A stretch of 24,000 bases of DNA from Bdellovibrionota bacterium (GTDB taxonomy: Bacteria; Bdellovibrionota; Bdellovibrionia; Bdellovibrionales; Bdellovibrionaceae), in assembly GCA_040386015.1 (NCBI GenBank), contig JAZKGG010000007.1:160153-184152 (forward strand), given 5' to 3'. Position numbers and translations under genes: made by a program. Of this stretch, positions 6,385 to 20,138 are shown piece by piece; positions within the stretch are counted from its first letter, which is position 1, and every line of letters begins with the position of its first letter. Below the pieces are notes generated by a model. It made no database searches. It was not told the origin of the DNA and worked only from the letters and a program-made list of their open reading frames with translations.

Positions 6385-6870
6385 TTATTCAAGATCCATG
6401 TTTTGCATGCGCATTTTCGGCATGTAAGTTTCAGCTTGTTCTAATAAAGACAAGTGCGCTTGAGCCATGGCTTTAAGATTTGCTTCGAACTGCATTCTTG
6501 ATTTTTTAAGATCAGAAATTTCGTTATAAATTTTACGTAAAGAATCTTTGGCGTCGCGTGTGATTGTTTCTGCCTTTTGTTGAGCGTCAGCAATAACTAA
6601 TTTACATTCGTGTTCAGCTTCTTGTTTCATTTGATCTGATAACTTAGTCGCTTGTGTGATGGCGCTACGTAAGACATTATCGCGATCACGAAACTCGTGA
6701 AGCTGTAATTCTTTTTCTTTAAGTTCTTCAGTTAATGTTTGAATTTGTTGTGCAAGATTTTCAGTTTGCGCAGCAATAATCGTTAGATAATTTACAACTT
6801 GTTCAGGATCAAAGCCCATCATCTTGCGATCGAAGGTCTTATTTACTATTTCAGTTGGGTAAAATTTCAT
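6385..6870 (-). CDS. divIVA: DivIVA-domain cell-division/polarity protein (161 aa)
   Basis: N-terminus MKFYPTEIVNKTFDRKMMGFDPEQVVNYL matches the conserved DivIVA lipid-binding N-domain (F.....GY....V..FL). The remainder is heptad-rich coiled coil. A GGAGG SD is present. Confidence 0.85.
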   Translation of the reverse strand: MKFYPTEIVNKTFDRKMMGFDPEQVVNYLTIIAAQTENLAQQIQTLTEELKEKELQLHEFRDRDNVLRSAITQATKLSDQMKQEAEHECKLVIADAQQKAETITRDAKDSLRKIYNEISDLKKSRMQFEANLKAMAQAHLSLLEQAETYMPKMRMQNMDLE

Positions 6871-7022: not shown

Positions 7023-7033
7023 TTGCGCATATG
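6999..7033. repeat. perfect 10-bp inverted repeat CATATGCGCA / TGCGCATATG bracketing the -10 element and covering the start codon
   Basis: Read directly: arms at 6999-7008 and 7024-7033 with a 15-nt spacer. The right arm contains ATG 7031-7033. Confidence 0.8.
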
Positions 7034-8188
7034 ATTAAGAGAATGTGTAACCCATCAAAATCACAAAGTTTTTTCTTATTTGGCCCACGTGGTGCAGGCA
7101 AGACGACATTTCTTAAATGGTTTTTTATCGATACTGAGCCTTTATGGATCAATCTGTTAGATCAAAAAACTGAGTTTAATCTGGCACAGAATCCTGATTA
7201 TTTATTGGATCTTTGGAAAAAAGAAAAACAAAAATGGATTGTTATTGATGAAGTTCAGAAAATTCCAAGAATTTTAGACGTTGTTCATCAAGGTATTGAA
7301 GAGCATAAAATTAAATTTGCTTTGACTGGATCAAGCAGCCGAAAGCTTAAACGCGGTGGTGCTAATTTGCTGGCCGGCCGTGCGGCTTCTTTTTCGCTAG
7401 CGCCGTTTTCAAGTTTAGAATTAGGAGACCAATTTAATTTATCAAAAGCTTTGAAGTTTGGCTTACTGCCCAAATTATGGAATGAAAAACTTGATAGTAA
7501 GGATATGTCACGTTCTTTATATTCTTATGTGCAAACTTATTTGAAAGAAGAAGTGGCGGCTGAACAGCTAGTAAGAAATCTAGATCCCTTTCGCCGTGTA
7601 TTGGTCAGCGCAGCTCAAAGTAATTCAAAAATTATAAACTATGCTAAAATTGAAAGAGATGCGGGTGTTGCTCATTCACAAGCTGAAAGACATTTTGAAA
7701 TATTGTGTGATACATTAGTTGGCCGATATTTAGAGCCCCATGATCATTCTATTCGAAAAAGACAGATTAAAAAAAGTAAATTTTATTTTTTTGATACAGG
7801 AGTCGTTCGGGCGCTAAGAAATTTATTGGAGGAAGATTTAGACCCGGGAAATTTTGAATTCGGTGATTTATTCGAAACTTTTTTGATTAATGAATTTTTT
7901 AAATTAAATGAGGCCCTTGAGAAAAGATGGAACTTTTCATATTTACGAACAAAAGATGATGTTGAAGTTGATCTTATCATTGAGCCTCCACGAGGCCCGA
8001 TGATTTTAATTGAAATTAAATCTAACAAAAACATTAAGCCTGATGATGCTTCAGCATTTTTAAAAATTTCTAAAGAATTTCCTAACGCTAGAAAGTATGT
8101 ACTTTCAAACTCGCAAGATGAATTTGAACATCAAAATATACGCTTTTTAAACTGGCAAGTTGGCCTTAAAGAAATATTTGCAGTCTAA
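7031..8188 (+). CDS. AAA+ ATPase of the AAA_14/DUF4143 (COG1373-like) family, 385 aa
   Basis: Walker A is FGPRGAGKTTFL and Walker B is WIVIDEVQKIP. The C-terminal half carries the DUF4143-like YFFDTGVVRAL motif and a small C-terminal restriction-endonuclease-like fold pattern (DVEVDLII...LIEIK). Confidence 0.85.
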   Translation: MIKRMCNPSKSQSFFLFGPRGAGKTTFLKWFFIDTEPLWINLLDQKTEFNLAQNPDYLLDLWKKEKQKWIVIDEVQKIPRILDVVHQGIEEHKIKFALTGSSSRKLKRGGANLLAGRAASFSLAPFSSLELGDQFNLSKALKFGLLPKLWNEKLDSKDMSRSLYSYVQTYLKEEVAAEQLVRNLDPFRRVLVSAAQSNSKIINYAKIERDAGVAHSQAERHFEILCDTLVGRYLEPHDHSIRKRQIKKSKFYFFDTGVVRALRNLLEEDLDPGNFEFGDLFETFLINEFFKLNEALEKRWNFSYLRTKDDVEVDLIIEPPRGPMILIEIKSNKNIKPDDASAFLKISKEFPNARKYVLSNSQDEFEHQNIRFLNWQVGLKEIFAV

Positions 8189-8452: not shown

Positions 8453-8465
8453 TCTAAGTCTGGCG
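8453..8465. repeat. 13-bp direct repeat copy 2 (TCTAAGTCTGGCG)
   Basis: Identical to 8184-8196. It covers the last three codons plus the stop of proC (minus strand: CGC CAG ACT TAG = R Q T stop). Confidence 0.9.
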
Positions 8466-9284
8466 TGAGATTTCTCGTGAACGAAGGGCTGCTTTTTCAA
8501 AGCTGATGCGCAAAGCACGCTCGATCTCTAGTTCACGCATTGAATTTAAACCTGCAGCAGTAACGCCTTTTTTAGAAGTTACGCGTTGTTGTAACTCTTC
8601 GATGTCTACACCAACAGATTGTGCAGCTAAAAGTGATGCGCCAACAAAAGTTTCAATCGTCATTACTTTAGCCTGTTCAGGTGTAAAGCCATGCTCGATA
8701 ATCCAATCTTGCCAGTACATCATCATTTCAAAAACAAAACCTGTACCGCTTGAGCAAGAAATCATTAAAGCATCAAATTGGTCTTCGGTATCTAATTCTA
8801 AAATTACGCCAAGACCTGAAAATAAATCTTTTGTGATTTCAATAACAGCGATATCTTTTTTATGCGCAAGTAATCCTAAAACTCCGCGACCAATGAGTGA
8901 TGGCGTGTTTGGCATAAGGCGAACTAAACGACCTTGCGGAATTAATTTTTCTAAGGAGTGCATGGGGATTCCAGCAGCTAGTGAAATGATGATTTGATTT
9001 TCATCAAATGCTGATACTAAATTTGCCATCGCCGCGGGAAGATCTTGTGGTTTCATCGCTAAAATAACGATGTCGCACTCTTCAATGATTTGTTCGTTAT
9101 GTTCACGAATTTCGATTTGATATAATTCTTTTAATTTAAGTGGTTTACCCGGAGTGCGGTTTGAAACATAAATTTGATCTGGCCTGAGTAATTTTGACTC
9201 GATCATTCCTTTGATTAAAGCCTGAGCCATGTGTCCTGCGCCGATAAAACCAATTTTGTAAGACCTAAGTAAAGGATGAGTCAT
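8454..9284 (-). CDS. proC: pyrroline-5-carboxylate reductase (276 aa from ATG 9284)
   Basis: MTHPLLRSYKIGFIGAGHMAQALIKG carries the Rossmann GxGxxA/G motif. MPNTP and the C-terminal SKKGVTAAGL are typical ProC blocks. The ORF-track start at 9353 would overlap the upstream gene by 59 nt, so I prefer the internal ATG. Confidence 0.9.
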   Translation of the reverse strand: MTHPLLRSYKIGFIGAGHMAQALIKGMIESKLLRPDQIYVSNRTPGKPLKLKELYQIEIREHNEQIIEECDIVILAMKPQDLPAAMANLVSAFDENQIIISLAAGIPMHSLEKLIPQGRLVRLMPNTPSLIGRGVLGLLAHKKDIAVIEITKDLFSGLGVILELDTEDQFDALMISCSSGTGFVFEMMMYWQDWIIEHGFTPEQAKVMTIETFVGASLLAAQSVGVDIEELQQRVTSKKGVTAAGLNSMRELEIERALRISFEKAALRSREISRQT

Positions 9285-9294
9285 ACTCGTTAGG

Positions 9295-10515
9295 CTACTG
9301 TATTTTTTGCCGTTCGCCAAATAAAACCGTGCCGATTCTAATCCATGTCGCACCTTCTTTGAGAGCGATGTGATAATCGTGGCTTGTTCCCATTGAAAGT
9401 TCAGTTGCTTTTAATTGTTGGGCCAAGTTTTTTAATTTTTTAAAATGAATTTCGTTATCTTCTGCCTCGTTTTGTAGGGGCGGCATGGTCATAAGCCCCA
9501 CAATCTTAACATTTGATAGTTTTTTCAGTTGCGGCCAAGCAGAAATTACGGTGGCTTCATCAAAACCCGCTTTAGTGGCCTCGTTCGACAAATTAACTTG
9601 AATGAAAATCTTTTGCACATGGTCGATTTCAGAAGCTTTTTTTGAGACGAGTTCGGCTAATTCTAGCGAATCAATGGCATGTAAATAGGCAAAATTATTT
9701 TTTAGATATTTTACTTTGTTTTTTTGGATCGGGCCGATCAAGTGCCATTCTAAATTTAGATCTTTCAGGGCTTCGGTTTTTTCTAAAGCTTCTTGAATGT
9801 AGTTTTCACCAAAAGCACGTTGACCCTGACTAGCCAATTCGCGAATTTTTTCTAACGGCTGAAGTTTGCTGACTGCAAGCAAGTTCTGCCCAGGTAATAG
9901 TTTGGCTTTGACTGCAGACAGTACTGATTTTTCAAAATTCCAATTTTTCTGGGCAAATAATTTTTCTAAGGCGGTGAGCGGTAAGCCCACGACGTTGTTG
10001 TAGTCTCCTACAAACCTTTCTACAAACTTTCCCCCCAAACCTTGAATGGCGTAAGAGCCCGCTTTATCCATGGGTTCACCAGTTTTGATGTAATCCCAGA
10101 TGGCCTCATCAGTTAAATTTTTAAAAAACACCTGTGAAGTCTCGATATGAGACACTAAGTCTTTTGTCTGTGGGTCGAGAAGGATGATTGCAGTTTTTAC
10201 TTCATGCATTTTGCCTGAAAGTTTTTTCAAAGTATCAAAAGCATCCTGTTCGTTTTCAGGTTTTCCGATCGCTAAATTTTCTAAACAAACCATCGTGTCT
10301 GAAGCCAAAATAATATTGCCTGGATTTTTGTCAGGACATTGGTCTAGGCAGGTAAAAGCTTTTCTTTTTGCGATGTCGATTATTTGCTCGTCTAAGCTTA
10401 GGTTTTCATTCGGGATTTCCGATATAAAGACTGGGAATGAGACAAAATAATAACCGGCTTTTTTTAAAATTTCTGCGCGGCGTGGAGATTGCGAAGCTAG
10501 GACAATTTTTTTCAT
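9295..10515 (-). CDS. maf-yggS: in-frame fusion of Maf nucleoside-triphosphate pyrophosphatase (aa 1-~190) and YggS/YlmE PLP-binding protein (aa ~195-406)
   Basis: The Maf part has MKKIVLASQSPRRAEILKKAG, ILASDTMV and KAGSYAIQG. The YggS part has LLAVSK (PLP lysine), FGENYIQE, WHLIGPIQKNK and LSMGTSHDY..A...GATWIRIGTVLFG. A single uninterrupted 406-codon ORF. Confidence 0.85.
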   Translation of the reverse strand: MKKIVLASQSPRRAEILKKAGYYFVSFPVFISEIPNENLSLDEQIIDIAKRKAFTCLDQCPDKNPGNIILASDTMVCLENLAIGKPENEQDAFDTLKKLSGKMHEVKTAIILLDPQTKDLVSHIETSQVFFKNLTDEAIWDYIKTGEPMDKAGSYAIQGLGGKFVERFVGDYNNVVGLPLTALEKLFAQKNWNFEKSVLSAVKAKLLPGQNLLAVSKLQPLEKIRELASQGQRAFGENYIQEALEKTEALKDLNLEWHLIGPIQKNKVKYLKNNFAYLHAIDSLELAELVSKKASEIDHVQKIFIQVNLSNEATKAGFDEATVISAWPQLKKLSNVKIVGLMTMPPLQNEAEDNEIHFKKLKNLAQQLKATELSMGTSHDYHIALKEGATWIRIGTVLFGERQKIQ

Positions 10516-10544
10516 TCAACTAAATTTAAACCAAAAGAGGATCT

Positions 10545-11450
10545 ATGGGTAGTGCTGAACTCATGTTATTTACCGGTCTCATCTTAGCGGGTGTGGCGGT
10601 TTATCTTTTCATGACTTCCATTTTGGCGGGCAAACCCGGCGAAGCGCAACTGCAATGGGCTAGTGGTACAGAACCCATCAAATCAAAAAATGGAATCATC
10701 AATCTTTGTCGTCCAATGGTGCATCAGTTCACTCTGCAACATGCGACAAAATTTAAATCAGAACAATACCGTAAAAAAATTCGTCATCTGATCAAAACTG
10801 GCGGTATGTCGGCAGAGATGAACGAAGATGAATTTATTGGTTACCAATTATTTTTAGGAATCGCATTTCCGATTTTTCTTAACATCATGAATTTTTCTTT
10901 GGATCTTGGATTCTCGCCCTTGATTTTATGTCTGCTTGGAGTGGTTGGTTGGTTTATGCCACAAATGCACTGTAAGGCGCAGAAAAAAGCTAGAACTTTA
11001 AGTGTGCAAGCCGACATGCCATTTTTTATTGATCTATTGGCGCTATCAGTTGAAGCCGGCCTTGATTTTTTTGGCGCGATTCAAAAAATCGTAGATAAAG
11101 TGGCTGATCCGAATTCTGTTTTAGCTGAAGAACTAAATACGGTGCTTAAAGACATCAAAGTCGGTTCGTCAAAAACTGATGCGTTAAAAGAAATGGCTGC
11201 ACGCTTAGATATGCCCGAGATCACAAGTTTTGTGGCGGTGTTAATCGATGCTGAAGCAACAGGCGCTAGTATTTCACAAGTGTTAAAAGATCAATCGGTG
11301 CAAATGCGCATGGAAAGATTTGTACGTGCAGAAAAAGCCGGAGCGCGAGCTTCGCAATTAATTTTATTACCATTAATGGGATTTATTCTACCAGCGGTAT
11401 TTATCATGGTGTTTGGCCCAGTGGTTTTAGGATTCGTTTACGGAAAATAG
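10545..11450 (+). CDS. type II secretion system F-domain protein, TadB/TadC-like platform protein (301 aa)
   Basis: N-terminal TM segment. The T2SS-F pattern is MPFFIDLLALSVEAGLDFFGAIQKIV...ELNTVLKDIKVGSSKTDALKEMAARL..PEITSFV..L.DAEATGASISQVL, followed by EKAGARASQLILLPLMGFILPAVFIMVFGP. Size and single-domain layout are typical of TadB/TadC. Confidence 0.8.
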   Translation: MGSAELMLFTGLILAGVAVYLFMTSILAGKPGEAQLQWASGTEPIKSKNGIINLCRPMVHQFTLQHATKFKSEQYRKKIRHLIKTGGMSAEMNEDEFIGYQLFLGIAFPIFLNIMNFSLDLGFSPLILCLLGVVGWFMPQMHCKAQKKARTLSVQADMPFFIDLLALSVEAGLDFFGAIQKIVDKVADPNSVLAEELNTVLKDIKVGSSKTDALKEMAARLDMPEITSFVAVLIDAEATGASISQVLKDQSVQMRMERFVRAEKAGARASQLILLPLMGFILPAVFIMVFGPVVLGFVYGK

Positions 11451-11457
11451 GAAAGAA

Positions 11458-11820
11458 ATGAAAATGGCGAAACTTTATAAAATACAACACGGCGATAAAG
11501 CTGAGCTTCTGATTGAAAATCTAGAGCTGGCCGAATCATTTTTTGCTCGTGGTAAAGGTTTGCTGGGTCGAAAATCTTTAGCTGTTAATAGCGCGCTTTG
11601 GATTAAGCCCTGTAACAACATTCATACATGTTTTATGAGTTTTGCTATTGATTGCATTTTCGTAAATAAAAAAATGGAAATCGAAAAAATCGTATCAGGT
11701 GTAAAACCCTATAAGATTGTGGGTCCATATTGGAAATCAGCTTCAGTTTTCGAAACTGCAGCAGGTTGTGCGCAAAAGTGGAACCTTCAGGTAGGAGATC
11801 AGTTATATGTGGTCAGTTAG
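11458..11820 (+). CDS. DUF192 (COG1430)-like small protein, 120 aa
   Basis: The pattern AESFFARGKGLLGRKSL...ALWIKPCNNIHTCFMSFAIDCIFVNKKMEI...FETAAGCAQKWNLQVGDQLYV follows the DUF192 consensus (A.t...r.rGLmgr..l....G.lf......ihm..m.f.iD..f.d....V....vlEl.aG......i..Gd.v). The start is 7 nt after the previous stop. Confidence 0.6.
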   Translation: MKMAKLYKIQHGDKAELLIENLELAESFFARGKGLLGRKSLAVNSALWIKPCNNIHTCFMSFAIDCIFVNKKMEIEKIVSGVKPYKIVGPYWKSASVFETAAGCAQKWNLQVGDQLYVVS

Positions 11821-13471
11821 AGTATTGTCCGGCCCACAAGCCGGACAGATTTTTGATTTAAAAATGGGAAAAAACCTGCTTGGTCGGGGAATGAACTGTG
11901 ATTTCAAAATCACTTCGGGTGGTATTTCAAAAGAACACGCCGAGATTCATGTCTATAAAGATAAAGTGATCGTGGTTGATTTAAAATCAAGTAATGGAAC
12001 ATTCGTAAATGGTGTAAAAATTCAGAATTCAATTATTAAGCTAGGTGATAAAGTCAGCGTGTTCGATGTGATCATGGATGTGATTCCGTCTCCGGATATT
12101 CGTCCAAAACCAGCGGCGGCAACTCGTCCAGTAGCTTTGCGTCCTCGTCCAGTACAACAACAACGTCAAATGCCTCCACAAATGTACAACCAGCAGCCTC
12201 TTGCATATCCGATGCAAGGCGGGGCGGCGATGCAAGCGCAAATGTATCACCAGCCAATGAATGGTGCGGCTTCACAGCAGAATAATTTTACGGCTCACGC
12301 TGAATTGCCAAAAACTTTGGGTGAGCGCATTGATGATTACATGGAAAATGCAGTGATGCCGGTATTTTATAAAATGTCGGTGGTGTTTCCTTTTAAACAA
12401 GTCTTATTAGGAATGATGATTCTATTCGTGGTTTTTGTGACGATTGCTTCGATGTTTCCTTTAACGACAATTTTACGTGAATCTAATTTTAATGAAGCCG
12501 CAAAACGTGCGAAAAGTGTGGCACGTGCGATGGCGCGCATTAATGAACAGGCTTTGTTATCAGGACAAATTAATAACTTAAATGTCAGCGAAGCTTTAAA
12601 AGAAGATGGTATTAAAGAAGCTATCATTATTATGCAGTCAGATGGTTCGGTAGTAGCTCCGACTGAAAAAGTTGGCCGTGATATGTCGAAATCTTTTGTG
12701 ATTCAAGCGCGTAAAGAGCCGCGCGCAATGGCAGCTCCGGTTGATGATAACACTATCGGTGCAAGTCATCCAATCGCAGCTTATGATCCAATATCTGGTG
12801 AAACGACGGTTAAATATGTAGCGATCGTTTTTTATGATATCAGTTCATTAAATGTTGATGATGGCCGTGTGGTCAGTTTATTCATGCAAACGTTAGTGAT
12901 TTCGGCTTTATTTGGTGTTGGTTTATATTTATTGTTCTCGCGTTTAATCGAGTTTCCAATTCGTCAGTTGAACAAACAAATTGATTTGGCCTTACGTGAA
13001 AAATCAGATCGCACTGAGGTGGCCTTTGATTACCCTGAATTACAAAAAGCAGTGGCTAATGTAAATCTAATTTTAAATCGTATGTGGAATGGTTTAAGTG
13101 ATTTAGAAACAATCAAGCCAAGCCAAAATCGTGATGTTGAATTTTCACAAATGGTCAATATGTTAACCCAACCTGCAGCAGTCATTGGGGCTAACGGATT
13201 AATCATTTCTTGTAATCAGCAATTTGCAACGTTAGTGCAAACAGCTCCAGAAGTACTGGTACAGCAAAACTATAATACCATCACAGATCAGGCGATGGTG
13301 CAAAATCTTGAAAATTTAATAAGACGAGCTCATGAATTAGTTTATGAAACGCATAAAGATATAATTCCATTTTCTCAATTTGAATGTGAAATTTTCTTAC
13401 AGGCTTTCTTAGACAGTTCAGGAGCGCCAGAATACTTTTTTGTGAGTTTAACCAAGGTGAATCAGGAGTAA
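11807..13471 (+). CDS. FHA-domain membrane protein with sensor-like architecture: FHA / P,Q,M-rich linker / TM / extracytoplasmic domain / TM / HAMP-like / PAS-like (554 aa)
   Basis: The FHA signature is LLGRG...ISKEHAEI...VVDLKSSNGTFVNG. Hydrophobic spans lie at about aa 197-221 and 356-380. The HAMP-like segment is FPIRQLNKQIDLALREKSDRTEVAFDYPELQKAVANVNLILNRM. The PAS-like segment is MLTQPAAVIGANGLIISCNQQFATLV. The ORF overlaps the DUF192 gene by 14 nt. Confidence 0.85.
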   Translation: MWSVRVLSGPQAGQIFDLKMGKNLLGRGMNCDFKITSGGISKEHAEIHVYKDKVIVVDLKSSNGTFVNGVKIQNSIIKLGDKVSVFDVIMDVIPSPDIRPKPAAATRPVALRPRPVQQQRQMPPQMYNQQPLAYPMQGGAAMQAQMYHQPMNGAASQQNNFTAHAELPKTLGERIDDYMENAVMPVFYKMSVVFPFKQVLLGMMILFVVFVTIASMFPLTTILRESNFNEAAKRAKSVARAMARINEQALLSGQINNLNVSEALKEDGIKEAIIIMQSDGSVVAPTEKVGRDMSKSFVIQARKEPRAMAAPVDDNTIGASHPIAAYDPISGETTVKYVAIVFYDISSLNVDDGRVVSLFMQTLVISALFGVGLYLLFSRLIEFPIRQLNKQIDLALREKSDRTEVAFDYPELQKAVANVNLILNRMWNGLSDLETIKPSQNRDVEFSQMVNMLTQPAAVIGANGLIISCNQQFATLVQTAPEVLVQQNYNTITDQAMVQNLENLIRRAHELVYETHKDIIPFSQFECEIFLQAFLDSSGAPEYFFVSLTKVNQE

Positions 13472-13479
13472 TACACTAG

Positions 13480-14703
13480 ATGTCGACGGCTGAAAAGCTT
13501 AACCCCGCAGTTCAAATTAAATTGAAAGTGCTGAAAGGACCGCACGAAGGGCAGTCTTTTCACCTTGCAAAGAGCTCGTTTACCTTAGGACGTGGTCCTG
13601 AGAATGAGGTCGTTTTAATTAATGATCCGCAGATTAGCCGTCAGCATGCACGTTTACAAGTGGTTGGCCAAGATATCGAAATTATCAACCTGAGCAAAAA
13701 AAATAAAGTGATGGTTGGTGCAGAAGAAATTCAACGTTGGAAGTTGATCAATGATTCTACTTTCGTACTAGGCGATACAGAAATTCAAATCGCTTTTGAA
13801 ATTGAAAAAATCTCGCCAGTAGCCCCGTTGCCACAATTAGTGCGCATGGGTTTACCAGCAATTCCTACACCTCCAATAGATGTTGAAGCTTCGCCTCCGA
13901 TGCCGGCGGCGCCACAAGCAAAAGCTCCAGCACAACAGCCGGCGCTTCGTAAAAAACCAATGTCTCCGCCAGCAAATCGCCAACAGGTGCCGGCACAAAG
14001 ACACCAGCAAATGCAACCGCGCGGAGCAATGGCTCCAGGTCGCCCGATGCAACAACAGCAAATGCAGCAACGCCCGATGCCGCAACAGCAATATGCTCAA
14101 GCTAATTTAGGACAAGCAAAGCCACAAAAAGCGGGTGGTGGGTTATTAGCAGATCCAAAAGTGCGATTTTATTTAATCGTAGGTGTGGCAGTCCTTAGTC
14201 TAGTTTATTGGTTAAATATGGAAGAGCCTAAAAAGGCCGAACCGACAGAAATTAAGTCGACTTTAAAATATGAAGATGAATATCTTCTTAAACAAAATTC
14301 GGTCACTGAAAAAGAGCTAGACCTGAAACGTAAAAACCAACTCGAACAAAATAACTCGCCGACCAATTTACGTATCCGAGAGAACTTTCAAAAAGGGATG
14401 CGCGATTTTCAGTTAGGAAACTACACTCGTGCCCTAGACTTTTTTCAGGTGGTATTAAATCTTGATTCAGGTCACGTGATGGCCCGTAGGCATTTATATT
14501 TAGCAAAAATTCGCTTCGATGAAATCGTAAAAGCGAAATTAGCACTTGGAGAAAGTTATTATCAGAAGCATAATTTTAAAATGTGCCTGGCTAATTACCA
14601 GCAGGTTTTGATTATGCTTCAGGGTAAAAACAACGATCAAAGTTATCAAACAGCCCAAAGCATGTCAGAAAAGTGTCAACTGGCAGCTGAGGGAATTCGT
14701 TAA
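13480..14703 (+). CDS. FHA-domain membrane protein: FHA / long P,Q-rich linker / single TM / TPR-like C-terminal domain (407 aa)
   Basis: The FHA signature is TLGRGPENEVVLNDPQISRQHARLQ. The linker spans aa ~112-222 (QQQQMQQRPMPQQQ). The TM segment is VRFYLIVGVAVLSLVYWL. TPR-like helices include FQLGNYTRALDFFQVVLNLD and YYQKHNFKMCLANYQQVL. Confidence 0.85.
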   Translation: MSTAEKLNPAVQIKLKVLKGPHEGQSFHLAKSSFTLGRGPENEVVLINDPQISRQHARLQVVGQDIEIINLSKKNKVMVGAEEIQRWKLINDSTFVLGDTEIQIAFEIEKISPVAPLPQLVRMGLPAIPTPPIDVEASPPMPAAPQAKAPAQQPALRKKPMSPPANRQQVPAQRHQQMQPRGAMAPGRPMQQQQMQQRPMPQQQYAQANLGQAKPQKAGGGLLADPKVRFYLIVGVAVLSLVYWLNMEEPKKAEPTEIKSTLKYEDEYLLKQNSVTEKELDLKRKNQLEQNNSPTNLRIRENFQKGMRDFQLGNYTRALDFFQVVLNLDSGHVMARRHLYLAKIRFDEIVKAKLALGESYYQKHNFKMCLANYQQVLIMLQGKNNDQSYQTAQSMSEKCQLAAEGIR

Positions 14704-14705
14704 TT

Positions 14706-16778
14706 ATGTCGAGATTGAAAGTATTATTAAGGGGAGCACAACTCAGTGACTTAAACCTTAGCCCTGATCGTGAATACGTCGGTGGCCGTAAGGAAAGTTG
14801 TGATATTCGTTTGCAACCTGAAAAAGGGATCTCGCGCGAACATTTCAAATTAAAATTTGAAGAAGGCCGTTGGGTATTAACTTCACTTTCGCGTTTTGGC
14901 GAAATCTTTTCTTTAGGCCAAAGAGTTGAAGCAACACCGCTTGAGCATGGCCAAATTTTTCAAATTCCTCCTTATGAATTTACGTTTAGTGATGTTCCAG
15001 ATTCGGCCAGCGATAATGTGAACGGCAATGAGATGCCTGAAGCTGGCGAAAATGAACGCACAGTTATTGGTGTTGCTCAGCAAGTTCCTTATATCAAAAT
15101 GATGTCGTCTGACGGTGCTGTTCGCGAAATGCTTCGTCTAGAGGTAGGTGATGTATGGGCTGCGGGACGTGATCCTTCGTGCCAAATTATTATTCCAGAT
15201 CAACGGGTAAGTCGTCGTCAATTTGAAGTCAGAAAAATTAACGGCATTTACACGATTATAGATTTAACCAGTGTGAACGGAACTTTTTTAAATGGTTCTC
15301 CAATTTCAAATACTGATCCTCAGCCTTTAAAATCAGGCGATGCGATCACGGTACTTGATAACACCATGTATTTCGAACTTCATGATCCCAATTTTCAATA
15401 TCGTATGGAGCGCATCGAAGTCCCGCCGTTACAAATGGCTGGCGGAACCGCTATTGATGATGCTCAAGAAATTGCTTTAGATGATTTGCCTGAGGGTGAA
15501 TACGATCCAAACCAAGATATGAATTACCCGCAAGAAATTGATCAAGGTTATTACCAAGATCAGATAAATCCAGAGGGTAGTCCTTTTACTGGAATGCCAG
15601 CAGATCAGATGCAAGGTGATTACTACAACATGCAAGGTGGGGCGCCGCCCCAAGAACAAGGCCCGCCACCTAAACCGATCGTACAAGCTTGGAACAGATT
15701 TAAAAATAACAAACCCGTTTTCTTTTCTGTGATCGCTCTATTTTTGGTCGGAATGTATTTTTTGAGTGATATGATCAATGCGCCAGCGCCACAAAAAACG
15801 GGACAACAACAAGCGTTTAATCCAGATGACCCTTTATCTCGTTTAAAACCTGAAGAGCGCGAAAACATTAATCTTTGGTATAACAATGCTGAAAAAGCTT
15901 TGCGCCAGCAGGCCTTTACCATTGCTAAAGAAAACTTAGATAATATTCATAAGTTAATGCCACTTGGGTATAAAGATTCAAAACTTTATGAGGCTGAAGC
16001 CTTAAACGGTGAACAAACTTTATTAACTCAACAAGAAACAGAACGTCGCGAAAAAGAACAAGCTGAATTACAAGCCTTGATCAAGGCGACTTTAGAAAAG
16101 TGTGAAAAATCGATCGTGCCCGAAACAACTCCCGAGGGCTTACAAGAGTGTTTAGCGCCAGTAACTATTAATGATCCAACAAATGCCGATGTTGATAGAA
16201 TGTTAAGTCAGGTTAGAAAAACGATCGGTGATCGTTTAGCCAAAGAAGAAGCTGAGCGAACTGCTAGAACACAGCGTGAAGAATTAAAAGAAATTTTTGC
16301 GCGTGCTGAAAAAGTTCATGAAACGGGCTTTCCTAAAAAAGCTATTAAAGCTTATCGTGAGGTGATCGCGAGCGAACTGCCAGACCCAGATGGATTAAAA
16401 GATATATCAGCAACGCGTATTAGATTTATCGAGAAAAAATTAGCAGAGCGTAATGCAAATAATATTTCAAGTGCTGAACTCTATTTAAAAGACGGTAAAT
16501 TTAAAGAAGGCATTATGGCTTTACGTGCGGCCTTACAATTTGATCCAGACAATCAAACTATCAAAGATAAGATCGAGCGTTATTCGAATGATTTACGTAA
16601 TCAAGTCAAAGTCATGTACCAAGAGTCGATCATCGATGAAAACTTTGGTTATGTGGATGGTTCTGACAACCGCCCAGGCGCTAAAGATAAATGGAAAAAA
16701 ATTATCGATATTGACTTAGAAGATGGCGATTATTACCGTAAAGCCTTCATTAAACTTAAACGTTATGGATTGTTATAA
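14706..16778 (+). CDS. tandem-FHA membrane protein: FHA(divergent) / FHA(canonical) / acidic Q,P,Y-rich linker / single TM / coiled-coil + TPR-like domain (690 aa)
   Basis: FHA-1 reads VGGRKESCDIRL..GISREHFKL...LTSLSRFGEIF; the S-x-N-G element is degenerate. FHA-2 reads AAGRDPSCQIII.DQRVSRRQFEV...IIDLTSVNGTFLNG. The TM segment is PVFFSVIALFLVGMYFL. The C-terminus has EKEQAELQ coiled coil and TPR-like repeats (LKDGKFKEGIMALRAALQFDPDN). Confidence 0.85.
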   Translation: MSRLKVLLRGAQLSDLNLSPDREYVGGRKESCDIRLQPEKGISREHFKLKFEEGRWVLTSLSRFGEIFSLGQRVEATPLEHGQIFQIPPYEFTFSDVPDSASDNVNGNEMPEAGENERTVIGVAQQVPYIKMMSSDGAVREMLRLEVGDVWAAGRDPSCQIIIPDQRVSRRQFEVRKINGIYTIIDLTSVNGTFLNGSPISNTDPQPLKSGDAITVLDNTMYFELHDPNFQYRMERIEVPPLQMAGGTAIDDAQEIALDDLPEGEYDPNQDMNYPQEIDQGYYQDQINPEGSPFTGMPADQMQGDYYNMQGGAPPQEQGPPPKPIVQAWNRFKNNKPVFFSVIALFLVGMYFLSDMINAPAPQKTGQQQAFNPDDPLSRLKPEERENINLWYNNAEKALRQQAFTIAKENLDNIHKLMPLGYKDSKLYEAEALNGEQTLLTQQETERREKEQAELQALIKATLEKCEKSIVPETTPEGLQECLAPVTINDPTNADVDRMLSQVRKTIGDRLAKEEAERTARTQREELKEIFARAEKVHETGFPKKAIKAYREVIASELPDPDGLKDISATRIRFIEKKLAERNANNISSAELYLKDGKFKEGIMALRAALQFDPDNQTIKDKIERYSNDLRNQVKVMYQESIIDENFGYVDGSDNRPGAKDKWKKIIDIDLEDGDYYRKAFIKLKRYGLL

Positions 16779-16780
16779 TC

Positions 16781-17359
16781 GTGAAATCAAAAATCAACTC
16801 GCATAATGGCGAACAAAAATTTCCACAAACGCGAGTGCATAGTTTATTAAATGATAACTTACTAGTTTACATTCGCTTATGGAGTGGGCCAGAGGCTGAG
16901 CAAAAAGCTGTCGACGAGATTTCTAGATATCTATCGGCTGCGGATGCAGATTTAGAAGTCACAACACCTTTTGATTACATTGAAAGTTTATCGTCTTTAG
17001 CAAATAAAGTGCGCATAGCTTTGTTATTAGCTAATGAAGCTATATATTTGGATAACAAAGAAAAATACACACAAGGTTATGAAATTGCGATTTGTTATAA
17101 ACATCACAAAGAAATTAGTATCGGTTCAGTCGGCCGCTTTGCTTTTTCGGCAGAAAAAAAAGATAAAAACTTTACGATGTTCGAATCAGGCGCGTTTTTA
17201 GATGATTTAGTGCTTTTGCCTACAGATTTATTGGGTGTCGAACGTGAAGTAGATATTAAATGCACTTCGGTATCAACTCGCGATTTAGAGGCGATTCAGA
17301 TCAGTTCAACGTTTGACCAACATACTTATTGGCAAGCTCACATTAATCAATTCGATTAA
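16781..17359 (+). CDS. hypothetical cytoplasmic protein, 192 aa (GTG start), last gene of the FHA operon; weak degenerate PP2C/SpoIIE-like pattern
   Basis: It starts 2 nt after the upstream stop and no in-frame ATG lies near the 5' end. The segment order LLVYIRLWSGPEAE / LLLANEAIY / GYEIAICY...ISIGSVGRFAF / LVLLPTDLLG loosely parallels the PP2C blocks ADGMGG / N..IY / GTT...a.vGDSR.Y / LLCSDGL, but without the metal-binding Asp residues. The functional assignment is speculative. Confidence 0.55.
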   Translation: MKSKINSHNGEQKFPQTRVHSLLNDNLLVYIRLWSGPEAEQKAVDEISRYLSAADADLEVTTPFDYIESLSSLANKVRIALLLANEAIYLDNKEKYTQGYEIAICYKHHKEISIGSVGRFAFSAEKKDKNFTMFESGAFLDDLVLLPTDLLGVEREVDIKCTSVSTRDLEAIQISSTFDQHTYWQAHINQFD

Positions 17360-17361
17360 AT

Positions 17362-19050
17362 TTAAAGTACAAAAATAGGGTCGACAAAAATCAAAGGGTG
17401 ATACCAGGCTTTATTAGGCTGATATAAACCCCACATGTTTTCTAAAGCTAGATTCCAAATAGAGATTTTGATTTCTTCAAAGTATTTTTTACGGCTTAAT
17501 TCATAAGTTAGTTTTGCTTTTTCTGGGTTTAGGCCAAAAAGACTTGCGTGTTTAAACTTTAAATAATCAATAAATAAACTATCATGACAAGATTTCAGCT
17601 GCGAAAGGCTGGTGGGTGGTTTGCTGATCAGATTTAAACAGCCAGAGTAGGCCATATCTAGCTTCGTTAGATCTAATTTATCGATTTGTTTAGTTTTAAG
17701 CTGCTGATTTAGCCAATATAAATACAGTGGGTGATTTTCAGAAACTTTGAGTGAGAAAAAATCAGCGGCTGGTAAGGTGTTTTTTAAATAATCACGAGCC
17801 ATTGTCGTGCCATTGTCATCAATGGGTGTGATGCTCGTCATAAATAAACGACGAATGCTTGGAATATCTTGTTCGGTATTCTTTTTGTTATTCAAATTCA
17901 CCACTTCAAATCGGTCGGTGGCTAAATTAAAAATTTCGGTTTCATCTTTGCGATCAATAATTAATAACGTCGGGCTAATGATGGCAAAGTTTAATTGTAA
18001 GGGTGATTTAATCCATGCGTTAGAAGCTTCAACTAATAATTGGCGAGTACTTGCGATGCTATCTGAGGCTTCGCTATAAAATTGGTTTAGATTTAAAAGT
18101 GAAAAGCCATCAAGTGTTGAGGGCTCGTCAGAGCCAAAAAAACTTTTAAGTGTATAACCCACATCAGCCAAGTTAATCGGGATGTCGTTTTTCCAAGAGA
18201 TACCTTCATCACCTTGCATGCGTGGAGGTTTTATTAATAACGACACGAGTGTGTTTTCAGAGTGTAAATTTAAAAAAGCCGTTTCATTTAAGCGGTTATA
18301 ATTATTGCTACCGCGTAAACCCACCACGTAAACATAAGTTTTATCCCAGATGCCACGATCTTTAAGTTCGTTGATAAAGTTAAAAAGTTTTTCGTCTAAT
18401 TTTTCAAGGTTTGTCGTTGTCGTATCAAGTTCGTTTAAAGCATCAATCTCAGAATTCGTGATGACTGCAAAAAAAGGAGTTGAATCTTCTTTTTGCCAAT
18501 CAAGAAAATTTTCTGAAGTAATTTTAAAATCTTTGATAATTTGGTTTGAATACTGGGCGGCCGCAGAATCGTCAAAGGTATCAAAGTATTTTGATAAGCC
18601 AGTCTTTTTAAGTACATGCGGGTTGCCTGCAAAAAAGCCAGTGCGGTAGCCCTGGTTATAGGCGGCTTCTTGAGTGGTTCTAACTTGTGGATTTAACAAA
18701 TCAAAACTGCGATGTACACCGTGTACGAGTGGGTACTGCCCAGTCAAAACCGAGCCGATCGCCGCAGCAGGCTGTAATGAAGTGGTGTAAGCATGGGTAA
18801 AGCGCATGAACTCTTTACAAATTAGAGCGAAACCAGAATTATCGTCGTTTTTCTCTTCAGAACAGTTCAATCTTTCGTTATCGAGCTGGTCAAATGCTAG
18901 AATTAACACAGATTTTTTTGTTTCACTTTGGCAAGACGTTTGGAAAAGAAGTTGAACAAATAACAACATAATAAACAAAACAGTGACAAAAATTGGTCGG
19001 GCCCAGACTTTGGTATATTGAGTATAATTGAGATTTTTTGACCCGCTCAT
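17362..19050 (-). CDS. sulfatase-fold (alkaline-phosphatase superfamily) protein lacking the formylglycine motif, with a ~250-aa extra C-terminal domain (562 aa)
   Basis: The N-terminal anchor or signal is PIFVTVLFIMLLFVQLLFQTSC. The blocks SVLILAFDQLD, FTHAYTTSLQPAAAIGSVLTGQYPLVHGV and GYRTGFFAGNPH align with the sulfatase blocks ILLIMADDLG, FTNAY..SPVCSPSRASLLTGRYPHRHGV and GYRT...GKWH. The C-x-P-x-R positions read P-A-A-A-I. Confidence 0.65.
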   Translation of the reverse strand: MSGSKNLNYTQYTKVWARPIFVTVLFIMLLFVQLLFQTSCQSETKKSVLILAFDQLDNERLNCSEEKNDDNSGFALICKEFMRFTHAYTTSLQPAAAIGSVLTGQYPLVHGVHRSFDLLNPQVRTTQEAAYNQGYRTGFFAGNPHVLKKTGLSKYFDTFDDSAAAQYSNQIIKDFKITSENFLDWQKEDSTPFFAVITNSEIDALNELDTTTTNLEKLDEKLFNFINELKDRGIWDKTYVYVVGLRGSNNYNRLNETAFLNLHSENTLVSLLIKPPRMQGDEGISWKNDIPINLADVGYTLKSFFGSDEPSTLDGFSLLNLNQFYSEASDSIASTRQLLVEASNAWIKSPLQLNFAIISPTLLIIDRKDETEIFNLATDRFEVVNLNNKKNTEQDIPSIRRLFMTSITPIDDNGTTMARDYLKNTLPAADFFSLKVSENHPLYLYWLNQQLKTKQIDKLDLTKLDMAYSGCLNLISKPPTSLSQLKSCHDSLFIDYLKFKHASLFGLNPEKAKLTYELSRKKYFEEIKISIWNLALENMWGLYQPNKAWYHPLIFVDPIFVL

Positions 19051-19103
19051 GAACTAACATCATAATGACTAAGTAATAAATGTAAAGACTAAAGGAGCCA
19101 TTC

Positions 19104-19730
19104 ATGTTCACTGACAAAATATTCGCCGTAGCTCATTACGCAGATCAATTCGTTTTATTCGTTTTGGTTTTAATGAGTGTGATTTCAATTGCTATGATTT
19201 TTGAAAGATTTATGACTTTAAAAAAAGTCGCCGCCGAAAGTGAACGCGTGCGCGCTCGCGTACGTATGGCTTTGCAAACGGGCTCGGTCAGTGATTATGA
19301 AGATATCGCGAAAGATCCAACTTCAATCGAAGGCCGTGCGGCAGGACAAGCCTTAAAACATTTTAAACAAAACGGTGAGCCCGGTTTTACTGAAGTGTTT
19401 AACACTTTCATTTTAACTGAAAAACCTGATCTTGAAAAATTTCTTCCGGTGTTAGCGACGATCGCATCAAACGCTCCATTTATCGGTTTATTCGGTACAG
19501 TATTAGGTATCATGAAAGCGTTTAATGATTTGGCGATGTCACCTGAGGCGGGTCAACAAACGGTTATGGCAGGTATTTCGGTAGCCTTAGTTGCGACAGC
19601 AGCGGGTTTATTCGTGGCCATTCCAGCCGGTATGTTTTTTAATTATTTTACGCGTAAAGTTCGTACCATCATCAACAGCGTTGAGTCGGTTAAAGAACTT
19701 GGTATCGCATACACTAAAAGAACTAAGTAG
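19104..19730 (+). CDS. exbB: MotA/TolQ/ExbB-family proton-channel protein (208 aa)
   Basis: Three TM segments and the family signature LATIASNAPFIGLFGTVLGIMKAFNDLA. An AAAGGAG SD is present. Confidence 0.85.
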   Translation: MFTDKIFAVAHYADQFVLFVLVLMSVISIAMIFERFMTLKKVAAESERVRARVRMALQTGSVSDYEDIAKDPTSIEGRAAGQALKHFKQNGEPGFTEVFNTFILTEKPDLEKFLPVLATIASNAPFIGLFGTVLGIMKAFNDLAMSPEAGQQTVMAGISVALVATAAGLFVAIPAGMFFNYFTRKVRTIINSVESVKELGIAYTKRTK

Positions 19731-19736
19731 GTAAAT

Positions 19737-20138
19737 ATGGCTTTTAAAGCTGACCAAGACGAAATTATGTCAGAAATTAATGTCGTACCACTGGTCGACG
19801 TTATTCTGGTTGTATTGATTATTTTTATGGTTACGGCACCTATGATTATGAAGCCGTCAATTAATGTTAACCTACCGAAAGCAGCCTCTGGCGAAGCCAC
19901 GACGCCTTCTAAATTAAATATCACTATTGGTAGTGATGGAAAATTAAATTTAGATGGTGAAGCGGTTGAAGACGTGCAAGTACAAGCAAAAGCTTTAGAA
20001 GAGGTAACTAAAAATCCCGATATTCAAGCGATCATCGCGGCTGATAAAGATGTTCCGCATGGCCGAGTGGTTTCGGTGTTAGATATTGTTAAAGGCGCTG
20101 GCGTAAAAAAATTCGCCATCAGCATTGATAAAAAATAA
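19737..20138 (+). CDS. exbD: ExbD/TolR-family protein (133 aa)
   Basis: MSEINVVPLVDVILVVLIIFMVTAP is the conserved N-terminal TM segment with the essential Asp. The periplasmic domain pattern is ...I.AD.....G.VV.VLD. Confidence 0.85.
   Translation: MAFKADQDEIMSEINVVPLVDVILVVLIIFMVTAPMIMKPSINVNLPKAASGEATTPSKLNITIGSDGKLNLDGEAVEDVQVQAKALEEVTKNPDIQAIIAADKDVPHGRVVSVLDIVKGAGVKKFAISIDKK

Follow-up and report, generated by a model that had tools for sequence, protein, structure and literature searches.

The tadC operon of a Bdellovibrionota bacterium joins a Tad platform protein to FHA-domain membrane proteins and a predicted pseudophosphatase

In the predatory bacterium Bdellovibrio bacteriovorus HD100, tadC (bd0470) heads an operon with bd0471-bd0475; a transposon mutant in the first gene (Bd0470::tn) can neither attach to prey nor kill it, and a mutant in an FHA protein gene (Bd0474::tn) attaches but can neither round nor kill the prey (Duncan et al. 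2019 mBio, PMC6561027). This "tadC locus" lies apart from tad locus 1; the main tad locus of B. bacteriovorus has TadB and no TadC. The tadC gene is essential, and TadC-mCherry co-localises with the secretin RcpA at the invasive pole. The FHA, TPR and PAS genes (the last so labelled in a figure legend) appear in that study as neighbours of tadC and were not studied there (bioRxiv 10.64898/2026.07.08.737194). Bd0474, of ∼674 amino acids (aa), consists of two FHA domains, a transmembrane (TM) span and a periplasmic TPR domain and binds Bd0075 in a two-hybrid assay based on bacterial adenylate cyclase (BACTH), and for the FHA protein Bd0473 (386 aa) an interaction with Bd0475 (228 aa) is predicted, with an AlphaFold-Multimer interface score (ipTM) of 0.60 (Front Bioinform 2025, PMC12034629). 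Bd0470 is also the orthologue of KilH from Myxococcus xanthus, where the FHA proteins MXAN_4648/4649 are encoded beside KilH and KilG (Seef et al. 2021, PMC8460266). Here we analyse a stretch of 24,000 nucleotides (nt) from a Bdellovibrionota bacterium (assembly GCA_040386015.1, contig JAZKGG010000007.1, positions 160,153 to 184,152), referred to below as the window, and the block of six genes at its centre (genes 1 to 6).

This block is the orthologue of the HD100 tadC locus and is thus a rediscovery of an already published operon. The two agree in the content and order of all six genes and are similar in gene sizes, the TadC proteins are 77% identical over the published stretch, and the architecture of gene 5 is that of Bd0474. 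A preceding sequence-only reading of the window had not recognised the combination as a described system, which it is. In the genus Bdellovibrio, genomes share the chromosomal neighbourhood of the window. The TadC proteins of three syntenic loci from this genus (L019, L021 and L022) fall into a 90% cluster with proteins named TadC of Bdellovibrio bacteriovorus, and the open reading frames (ORFs) of these loci, with 302, 115-117, 542-556, 364-384, 669-675 and 225-232 aa, match the published Bd0473, Bd0474 and Bd0475. We consider it probable, though far from settled, that this tadC operon comes from a predator of the Bdellovibrionales akin to B. qaytius and Pseudobdellovibrio, and that it combines TadC with a phosphothreonine-reading module acting on the Tad machine.

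Gene 1 encodes a polytopic protein of ∼300 aa with hydrophobic spans at its N terminus, middle and C terminus (aa 6-24, 97-141 and 272-290). The T2SS-F domain recognised earlier is present as one single domain (aa 161-290; Pfam T2SSF, PF00482, 60.4 bits against a cut-off of 25.2). Computed over 158 aa of the alignment printed in Seef et al., it shares 77% identity with Bd0470, 86% with its B. exovorus counterpart, 44% with KilH of M. xanthus and 30% with CpaH of Caulobacter. In a distant tad locus that encodes both platform proteins (L088, see below), gene 1 matched TadC with an E value of 1e-50 and TadB with one of 2e-9. Because of this difference and the identity to Bd0470 and KilH, gene 1 is best assigned as an orthologue of TadC rather than of TadB. 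TadC is a core component of the machine, not a regulator. Many distant TadC homologues, including those of L083 (228-1745) and P0233, P0235, P0240, P0241 and P0246, carry an N-terminal extension of 170-235 aa; these long homologues (400-530 aa) were considered as FHA-TadC fusions and rejected, as their extensions contain no Pfam domain. For gene 2, the earlier assignment to DUF192 holds (Pfam PF02643, 62.8 bits against a cut-off of 27, with 92 of the 96 profile positions covered). Its product has neither a signal peptide nor a TM span or other hydrophobic stretch; a sequence search of the PDB returned no match, and a literature search on the function of DUF192/COG1430 yielded nothing relevant.

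The six ORFs were confirmed (coordinates in the Table), all on the same strand and with successive junctions of +7, −14, +8, +2 and +2 nt, exactly those first given. Scanning species-representative genomes with a TadC alignment retrieved 80 loci, all from Bdellovibrionales, with TadC identities of 47-95%. The full chain of six ORFs of the expected sizes was found in 52 of the 55 loci that had at least 6.2 kb of sequence after tadC, and the sixth ORF matched the hidden Markov model of the gene 6 family in 56/56 cases. The overlap between the DUF192 gene and gene 3 measured exactly 14 nt in 64/70 genomes, and nearly all remaining junctions were within ±20 nt. Since order, sizes and junctions are kept across genomes, there is strong evidence that the six genes form a co-translated operon under selection, in line with the tightly coupled unit proposed from the window alone; conservation of the block on this scale goes far beyond chance juxtaposition. 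Bdellovibrio sp. qaytius and Pseudobdellovibrio sp. are the closest named genomes, with 94% identical TadC and an unchanged order of genes between divIVA and exbD, and both flanks of the block are syntenic throughout Bdellovibrionales. The gene 5 product is 100% identical to a Bdellovibrionota protein from a metagenome-assembled genome at NCBI. Just past the DUF192 stop, within the first codons of gene 3, we observed a terminator-like hairpin with a 9-bp stem (6 G-C pairs) followed by ATTTTTGATT; the same nucleotides code for the conserved peptide LSGPQAGQ, in which G9 and G13 are invariant. A scan for promoter and terminator consensus sequences over positions 9800-17900 did not rise above shuffled expectation.

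Table. Predicted features of the tadC operon and its flanks (positions are those of the window)
Feature	Position (nt)	Strand	Position (aa)	Annotation
gene 1	10545-11450	+		TadC/CpaH/KilH-type inner-membrane platform protein of the Tad (type IVc) pilus; Bd0470 orthologue
gene 2	11458-11820	+		DUF192 (COG1430) protein; same position as Bd0471
gene 3	11807-13471	+		FHA-TM-periplasmic segment-TM-PAS-like; same position as Bd0472
gene 3 FHA	11819-12061		5-85	
gene 3 TM1	12401-12457		199-217	hydrophobic span
gene 3 TM2	12869-12949		∼355-381	hydrophobic span
gene 3 PAS-like domain	13142-13450		∼446-548	cytoplasmic
gene 4	13480-14703	+		FHA-linker-TM-periplasmic TPR-like; same position as Bd0473
gene 4 FHA	13525-13791		16-104	
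gene 4 TM	14161-14223		228-248	
gene 4 TPR-like domain	14386-14667		∼303-396	periplasmic
gene 5	14706-16778	+		2xFHA-linker-TM-periplasmic helical/TPR; Bd0474 orthologue
gene 5 FHA1	14751-14993		16-96	
gene 5 FHA2	15162-15350		153-215	
gene 5 TM	15720-15776		339-357	
gene 6	16781-17359	+		cytoplasmic PP2C (PPM)-fold protein, catalytic motifs lost; Bd0475 orthologue
hairpin	11825-11848	+		terminator-like
divIVA	6385-6870	-		left flank
AAA_14/DUF4143 ATPase	7031-8188	+		left flank, between divIVA and proC
proC	8454-9353	-		left flank
maf-yggS	9295-10515	-		left flank, single fused ORF
sulfatase-like gene	17362-19050	-		right flank, convergent
exbB-exbD	19104-20138	+		right flank

Profile scans of all window ORFs of at least 80 aa gave no match to a T2SSE ATPase, a second T2SSF protein, Flp, peptidase A24, a secretin or Pkinase, in agreement with the earlier observation that the 24 kb lack an ATPase, second platform protein, pilin, prepilin peptidase, secretin and kinase. 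We searched a representative library for distant TadC relatives and looked at the genes around seven of these (L083, L085 and L087-L091). In two, L083 and L089, TadC is 35-36% identical to gene 1 and 64-71% identical to Halobacteriovorax/Bacteriovorax proteins, on which ground we take these loci to be Bacteriovoracales-like. Both keep all six genes and have different neighbours, with MreB/PilZ upstream and a response regulator downstream. The response-regulator gene directly follows the six-gene block (L083 7578-8819, L089 15009-15725), the sixth gene there being an intact PP2C, and may point to a connection with two-component signalling, which the window does not have. L088 (68% GC) is a near-complete tad locus with TadE, RcpC, a secretin, a TadZ-TadA fusion, TadB, TadC, DUF192, two FHA proteins (FHA557 and FHA315, of 557 and 315 aa), a second T2SSE and a Hanks-type Ser/Thr kinase; the last is a membrane kinase, encoded right after the FHA genes together with the second T2SSE ATPase. 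In L090, three FHA genes follow TadC close to TadZA and TadB. The fusions of a ParA-like TadZ with TadA in L088 (6753-8825) and L090 (1-950) resemble the TadZA hybrid reported for B. bacteriovorus. The canonical locus L091 runs Flp-TadV-TadE-TadG-RcpC-secretin-TadZ-TadA-TadB-TadC with DUF192 directly after tadC, and no FHA genes were found in it; L085 and L087 are short contigs in which DUF192 again directly follows tadC.

DUF192 is thus placed directly after tadC in six of the seven distant loci (L083, L085, L087, L088, L089 and L091), among them a canonical tad locus without any FHA gene; this bears out the earlier remark that DUF192 genes often accompany tad loci. From these arrangements we conclude that TadC and DUF192 have long been paired in Tad loci, that the FHA genes were accessory to the Kil-like/predator branch, and that in Bdellovibrionales the segment from tadC onward was split off the main tad locus. 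The sequence-only reading had left it undecided whether such a block ever sits inside a complete tad locus; in distant relatives it does (L088, and L090 near TadZA/TadB). By the criterion set with that reading, such embedding makes the block an accessory of the known Tad/Kil machine. The same reading had offered two interpretations, a satellite regulator whose type IV filament machine is encoded at another place or a distinct, undescribed assembly around a lone platform protein. The latter fails, as gene 1 is the Bd0470/KilH orthologue and the relatives' block lies inside tad loci; of the former, the satellite position stands and the term regulator does not, TadC being a core component.

Genes 3 to 5 encode membrane proteins with FHA domains, scoring 55.2, 41.1 and, over two stretches, 103.7 bits, respectively (Pfam PF00498, cut-off 20.7). 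They had been described as FHA paralogues, each with an FHA domain, a linker, a hydrophobic span and a large non-cytoplasmic domain. All three do share the FHA module and a layout with a P/Q-rich linker, but sequence similarity among them (∼33% identity over 70-86 aa, E value of 1e-7) stays within the FHA domain, and no relationship links the C-terminal domains. The described layout fits genes 4 and 5, the latter with two FHA domains instead of one, but not gene 3, whose C-terminal part is PAS-like and cytoplasmic. In gene 4, a P/Q-rich linker leads to a single TM span and a periplasmic TPR-like domain (Pfam Yop-YscD_cpl 54.7, FHA 41.1, TPR_2 27.2 bits); in gene 5, an acidic/P/Q linker precedes a single TM span and a periplasmic helical/TPR domain of ∼330 aa. 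The FHA domain of gene 3 is followed by a P/Q/M-rich linker and two hydrophobic spans, between which topology prediction places a periplasmic segment of ∼140 aa. PAS families were matched by 16/59 gene 3 orthologues (best E value of 6e-8) and Cache, weakly, by 3/59. NCBIfam WalK aligned with aa 196-516 at 19.5 bits (cut-off 725), and the profile search gave no HisKA/HATPase match, so that gene 3, despite two TM spans and a PAS-like C terminus, does not qualify as a sensor histidine kinase. It may best be described as a sensor-kinase-like input module without the kinase, with the predicted order FHA(in)-TM-periplasmic segment-TM-PAS(in). Its homology to FHA557 of L088 runs beyond the FHA domain, up to aa 289.

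FHA domains contact phosphothreonine through a Gly-Arg pair, a Ser-x-x-His motif and an Asn. In gene 3, G26, R27, S41, H44, N63 and G64 are invariant in 59-71 orthologues, with 71/71 for the contacting residues. The corresponding counts for gene 4 are 66/67 (G37), 65/67 (R38), 67/67 (S53), 60/67 (H56) and 58/67 (N75). For gene 5, G27, R28, S43 and H46 of FHA1 are present in 62/62 orthologues, as are G154, R155, N191 and T193 of FHA2, where S169 is found in 60/62 and the His is replaced by Gln in 39/62. In each of the four FHA domains, the phosphothreonine-binding Gly-Arg and Ser are thus invariant or nearly so across 62-71 species, and we regard the label "phosphothreonine-responsive", proposed from the window sequence, as a well-founded inference.

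Gene 6, until now a small unknown protein, has a PP2C fold. An AlphaFold2 (AF2) model built from 96 homologues reached a mean per-residue confidence (pLDDT) of 92.8 and a global score (pTM) of 0.89, and nearly all of its top 40 Foldseek matches in the PDB were PP2C-family proteins (probability 1.00, E values of 3e-8 to 1e-6, TM scores of 0.54-0.68), among them tPphA, PstP, Stp1 and the type VI secretion system (T6SS) regulator PppA. The C-terminal domain of the pseudophosphatase RssB was also among the matches. The protein has no TM span and is predicted to be cytoplasmic. The link to PP2C comes from structure prediction and from more distant orthologues, since searches with sequence only were uninformative: Pfam scans of gene 6 and 96 relatives gave no PP2C signal, and the family profile returned a single spurious match among PDB sequences (E value of 0.036). 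At the same position in L083 and L089, the sixth gene matches PP2C_2 (29.6 bits) and SpoIIE (25.4 bits), respectively, passing or touching the Pfam cut-offs, and alignment shows that both keep the motifs NED, DGFGG, (T/S)DG and DNQT. In contrast, the metal-binding motifs NED, DGxGG, SDG and DN are all missing from gene 6 in the alignment, and the catalytic motifs are replaced in the window and in every one of the 56 orthologues from Bdellovibrionales, where DGxGG, for instance, has given way to (T/S/R)xWG. Gene 6 is therefore a predicted pseudophosphatase, of which no phosphatase activity is expected. Because the Bacteriovoracales-like relatives keep motifs that all Bdellovibrionales orthologues have lost, the ancestral operon most likely coded for an active PP2C that became a pseudophosphatase in Bdellovibrionales.

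The flanks had been given as a divergent maf-yggS pair on the left and a convergent sulfatase-like gene on the right; this holds, except that maf-yggS is one fused ORF. Its 406 aa comprise Maf (aa 1-190) and the pyridoxal phosphate-binding protein YggS (aa 211-402). The fusion seems to be conserved in Bdellovibrionales, with tblastn covering 93-100% of the ORF in most of the 80 loci, and it sits in a divIVA-proC-yggS cell-division neighbourhood. The AAA_14/DUF4143 ATPase gene is missing at the same place in B. qaytius (locus L002) and is probably a lineage-specific insertion. On the right, the sulfatase-like membrane protein, with a weak LapC/YejM/PbgA match, ends 2 nt from the stop of gene 6 on the opposite strand; together with exbB-exbD (17362-20138) it is syntenic with the operon across Bdellovibrionales, a synteny that the Bacteriovoracales-like loci do not share. 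At its ends the window carries valS and an asd-like gene.

In the reading that we favour, gene 1 supplies TadC, the second inner-membrane platform subunit of a Tad machine at the invasive pole. Its partners are TadB, the secretin, the TadZA ATPase and the Flp pilins, which in this genome, as in B. bacteriovorus, would be encoded at a separate tad locus 1. The resulting Tad machine would be needed for prey attachment and invasion. The five genes co-translated with tadC would form a machine-associated phosphothreonine module, perhaps including gene 2 as the DUF192 partner of TadC. Genes 3 to 5 would hold FHA domains under the inner membrane; in genes 4 and 5 these would connect to TPR domains in the periplasm, and in gene 3 to a sensor-like unit with two TM spans and a cytoplasmic PAS domain. 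The module would act once attachment has taken place. Upon prey contact, a Ser/Thr kinase encoded elsewhere might mark a Tad component or a linker; the FHA proteins could then bind the marked sites and, together with their arms in the periplasm, allow attachment to proceed to invasion. Instead of erasing marks, the dead PP2C would bind the FHA proteins without hydrolysis or serve as their adaptor. A more far-reaching version, which we put forward tentatively and think rather doubtful, sees in the tadC-linked genes the relics of a threonine-phosphorylation pathway that was dedicated to a type IV filament machine, comparable to PpkA/PppA/Fha1 of the T6SS. An ancestral Hanks kinase and active PP2C would have acted with FHA readers on TadC, the Bdellovibrionales PP2C would now be a phosphothreonine-mimicking or FHA-capping adaptor, and gene 3 and the TPR arms would report contact with the prey envelope and so turn an attaching Tad pilus into an invading one. 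Pieces of such a kinase, PP2C, FHA and TadC set are seen in L088 and the Bacteriovoracales-like loci.

Several points weigh against the reading that we favour. No Hanks kinase was found within 10 kb of tadC in the 80 Bdellovibrionales loci, nor did the L088 kinase, used as query, match anything in 82 loci and the window. The sole phosphatase-like gene, gene 6, is catalytically degenerate, and with no kinase nearby phospho-signalling may have been lost or rewired in Bdellovibrionales. FHA1 of gene 5 lacks the canonical Asn, with Phe or Tyr there in most orthologues; neither a phosphosite nor a kinase nor an FHA ligand is known; and the periplasmic domain of gene 3 has no usable model (single-sequence AF2, pLDDT 38). 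The source-genome search for tadB, tadA, rcpA and flp covers the 24-kb window, and transposon phenotypes of the upstream genes may include polar effects. The missing kinase, the dead PP2C and the absent Asn fit the main rival, a system no longer using phosphorylation, in which the FHA proteins would be phospho-independent scaffold or alignment parts of the Tad basal body, like SctD/PrgH or PilN/PilO. All three match Pfam Yop-YscD_cpl (48-64 bits), MXAN_4649 has been called PrgH-like (PMC8460266), and Bd0474 binds Bd0075 via periplasmic TPR domains (PMC12034629). However, the phosphate-contacting Gly-Arg and Ser are near-invariant in four FHA domains across 62-71 species, and the ancestral operon had an intact PP2C, with a Hanks kinase adjacent in L088. 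Moreover, the best score against the full-length SctD model (TIGR02500) was 26.6 bits (23.7 and 13.7 for the other two), far from the cut-off of 86 and confined to the N-terminal FHA, and the profile search of genes 3 to 5 found no Yop-YscD_ppl or other periplasmic ring-building domain. We consider a purely structural scaffold unlikely, though a serious contender.

Two further explanations are much less probable than the scaffold. The syntenic flanks could mean that the module is coupled to division and polarity (divIVA-proC-maf/yggS) or to a Tol/Exb-type motor (exbB-exbD), as GltG is to AglRQS. Gene 5 (2xFHA-TM) and Bd0075 (GYF-TM-TPR) mirror the cytoplasmic layout of GltG/GltJ, and NCBIfam GltG (NF033760) gave weak matches. 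These matches, however, reach 24-36 bits against a cut-off of 650 (35.6 at best), cover the FHA domain and linker only, and come without a TonB C-terminal domain (TonB-CTD), which the profile search did not find in any FHA protein of the operon. The flanks are divergent or convergent transcription units, L083 and L089 keep the six genes with other neighbours, and in L088 the neighbours are tad genes, all of which makes such coupling improbable. A self-contained, undescribed envelope machine around a single platform protein, working without a Tad pilus, would account for the lack of any other Tad gene within 24 kb and for the conservation of the block as a separate unit across Bdellovibrionales. 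It is largely refuted and barely credible, since gene 1 is the orthologue of Bd0470/KilH, the partner of TadB/KilG, and TadC orthologues sit beside TadB/TadA in L088, L090 and L091. In B. bacteriovorus, moreover, TadC co-localises with the secretin while the main locus has TadB and no TadC (bioRxiv 10.64898/2026.07.08.737194).

How an obligate predator senses contact with its prey and moves from attachment to invasion is an open question, and the tadC operon is among the few loci whose mutants separate these steps, as Bd0474::tn attaches and does not invade. The operon is universal in Bdellovibrionales and its FHA pockets are strictly conserved, while its PP2C is dead there but intact in the Bacteriovoracales-like relatives. 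The signalling half of a known locus, mechanistically unexplained, is thereby directly testable, and the vague notion that FHA proteins may signal becomes concrete.

Among other known systems, the T6SS pathway of PpkA, PppA and Fha1 (TagH) likewise places an FHA reader and a PP2C-fold protein on a contact-fired, envelope-spanning machine, and TagH (TIGR03354) is the best NCBIfam match of gene 5, with 68.7 bits (cut-off 120.25). The T6SS pathway, however, has the PpkA kinase and an active PppA, whereas the tadC operon has no kinase and a degenerate PP2C, and its machine is a Tad pilus. With SctD (YscD/PrgH/EscD) of type III secretion systems, genes 4 and 5 share the layout of a cytoplasmic FHA fold, a single TM span and a periplasmic domain. 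The phosphothreonine-binding residues are conserved in the tadC-operon proteins, whereas SctD-type FHA folds are not known to have the contacting Gly-Arg and Ser residues. Myxococcus GltG (2xFHA-TM-TonB-CTD) and GltJ (ZnR-GYF-TM-TonB-CTD) (PMC11761067) form a cytoplasmic pairing mirrored by gene 5/Bd0474 and Bd0075, including long low-complexity linkers, but differ in their periplasmic TonB-CTD and agl/glt context, as opposed to TPR domains and a tadC context. With all family models below cut-off, the operon proteins do not qualify as TagH, SctD or GltG. Gene 6 shares the alpha-beta-beta-alpha sandwich of the PP2C/PPM phosphatases tPphA, PstP and Stp1 and of the RssB C-terminal domain, and lacks all four motifs that these phosphatases have.

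The closest likenesses are to predation machines, and we place the block in the published tadC operon family of Bdellovibrio and like organisms (BALOs), within the Kil-like branch of Tad systems. Like the window, cluster 2 of the M. xanthus Kil system (MXAN_4648 with FHA and TPR, MXAN_4649 with FHA, KilH and KilG) has a TadC-type gene flanked by FHA and FHA+TPR membrane proteins and belongs to a Tad-like machine split over several loci; the Kil FHA proteins have been proposed as contact-signalling elements (PMC8460266), the two FHA sets being likened by description. Unlike gene 1, KilH adjoins KilG (TadB), CpaB and pilins, and neither a DUF192 nor a PP2C-like gene is listed there. From the HD100 locus, the window differs in its B. 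qaytius/Pseudobdellovibrio-like lineage with ∼39% GC and in gene 6, which has 192 aa and the degenerate motif RxW as against 228 aa and (T/S)xWG in Bdellovibrio. To what is stated in the HD100 and Kil literature, our analysis adds the order-wide conservation with fixed junctions and near-invariant phosphothreonine pockets, the predicted topology of gene 3 with two TM spans and, at its C terminus, a cytoplasmic PAS, the probable PP2C origin and degeneration of the Bd0475 family, and the contiguous tad-FHA-kinase loci of distant relatives.

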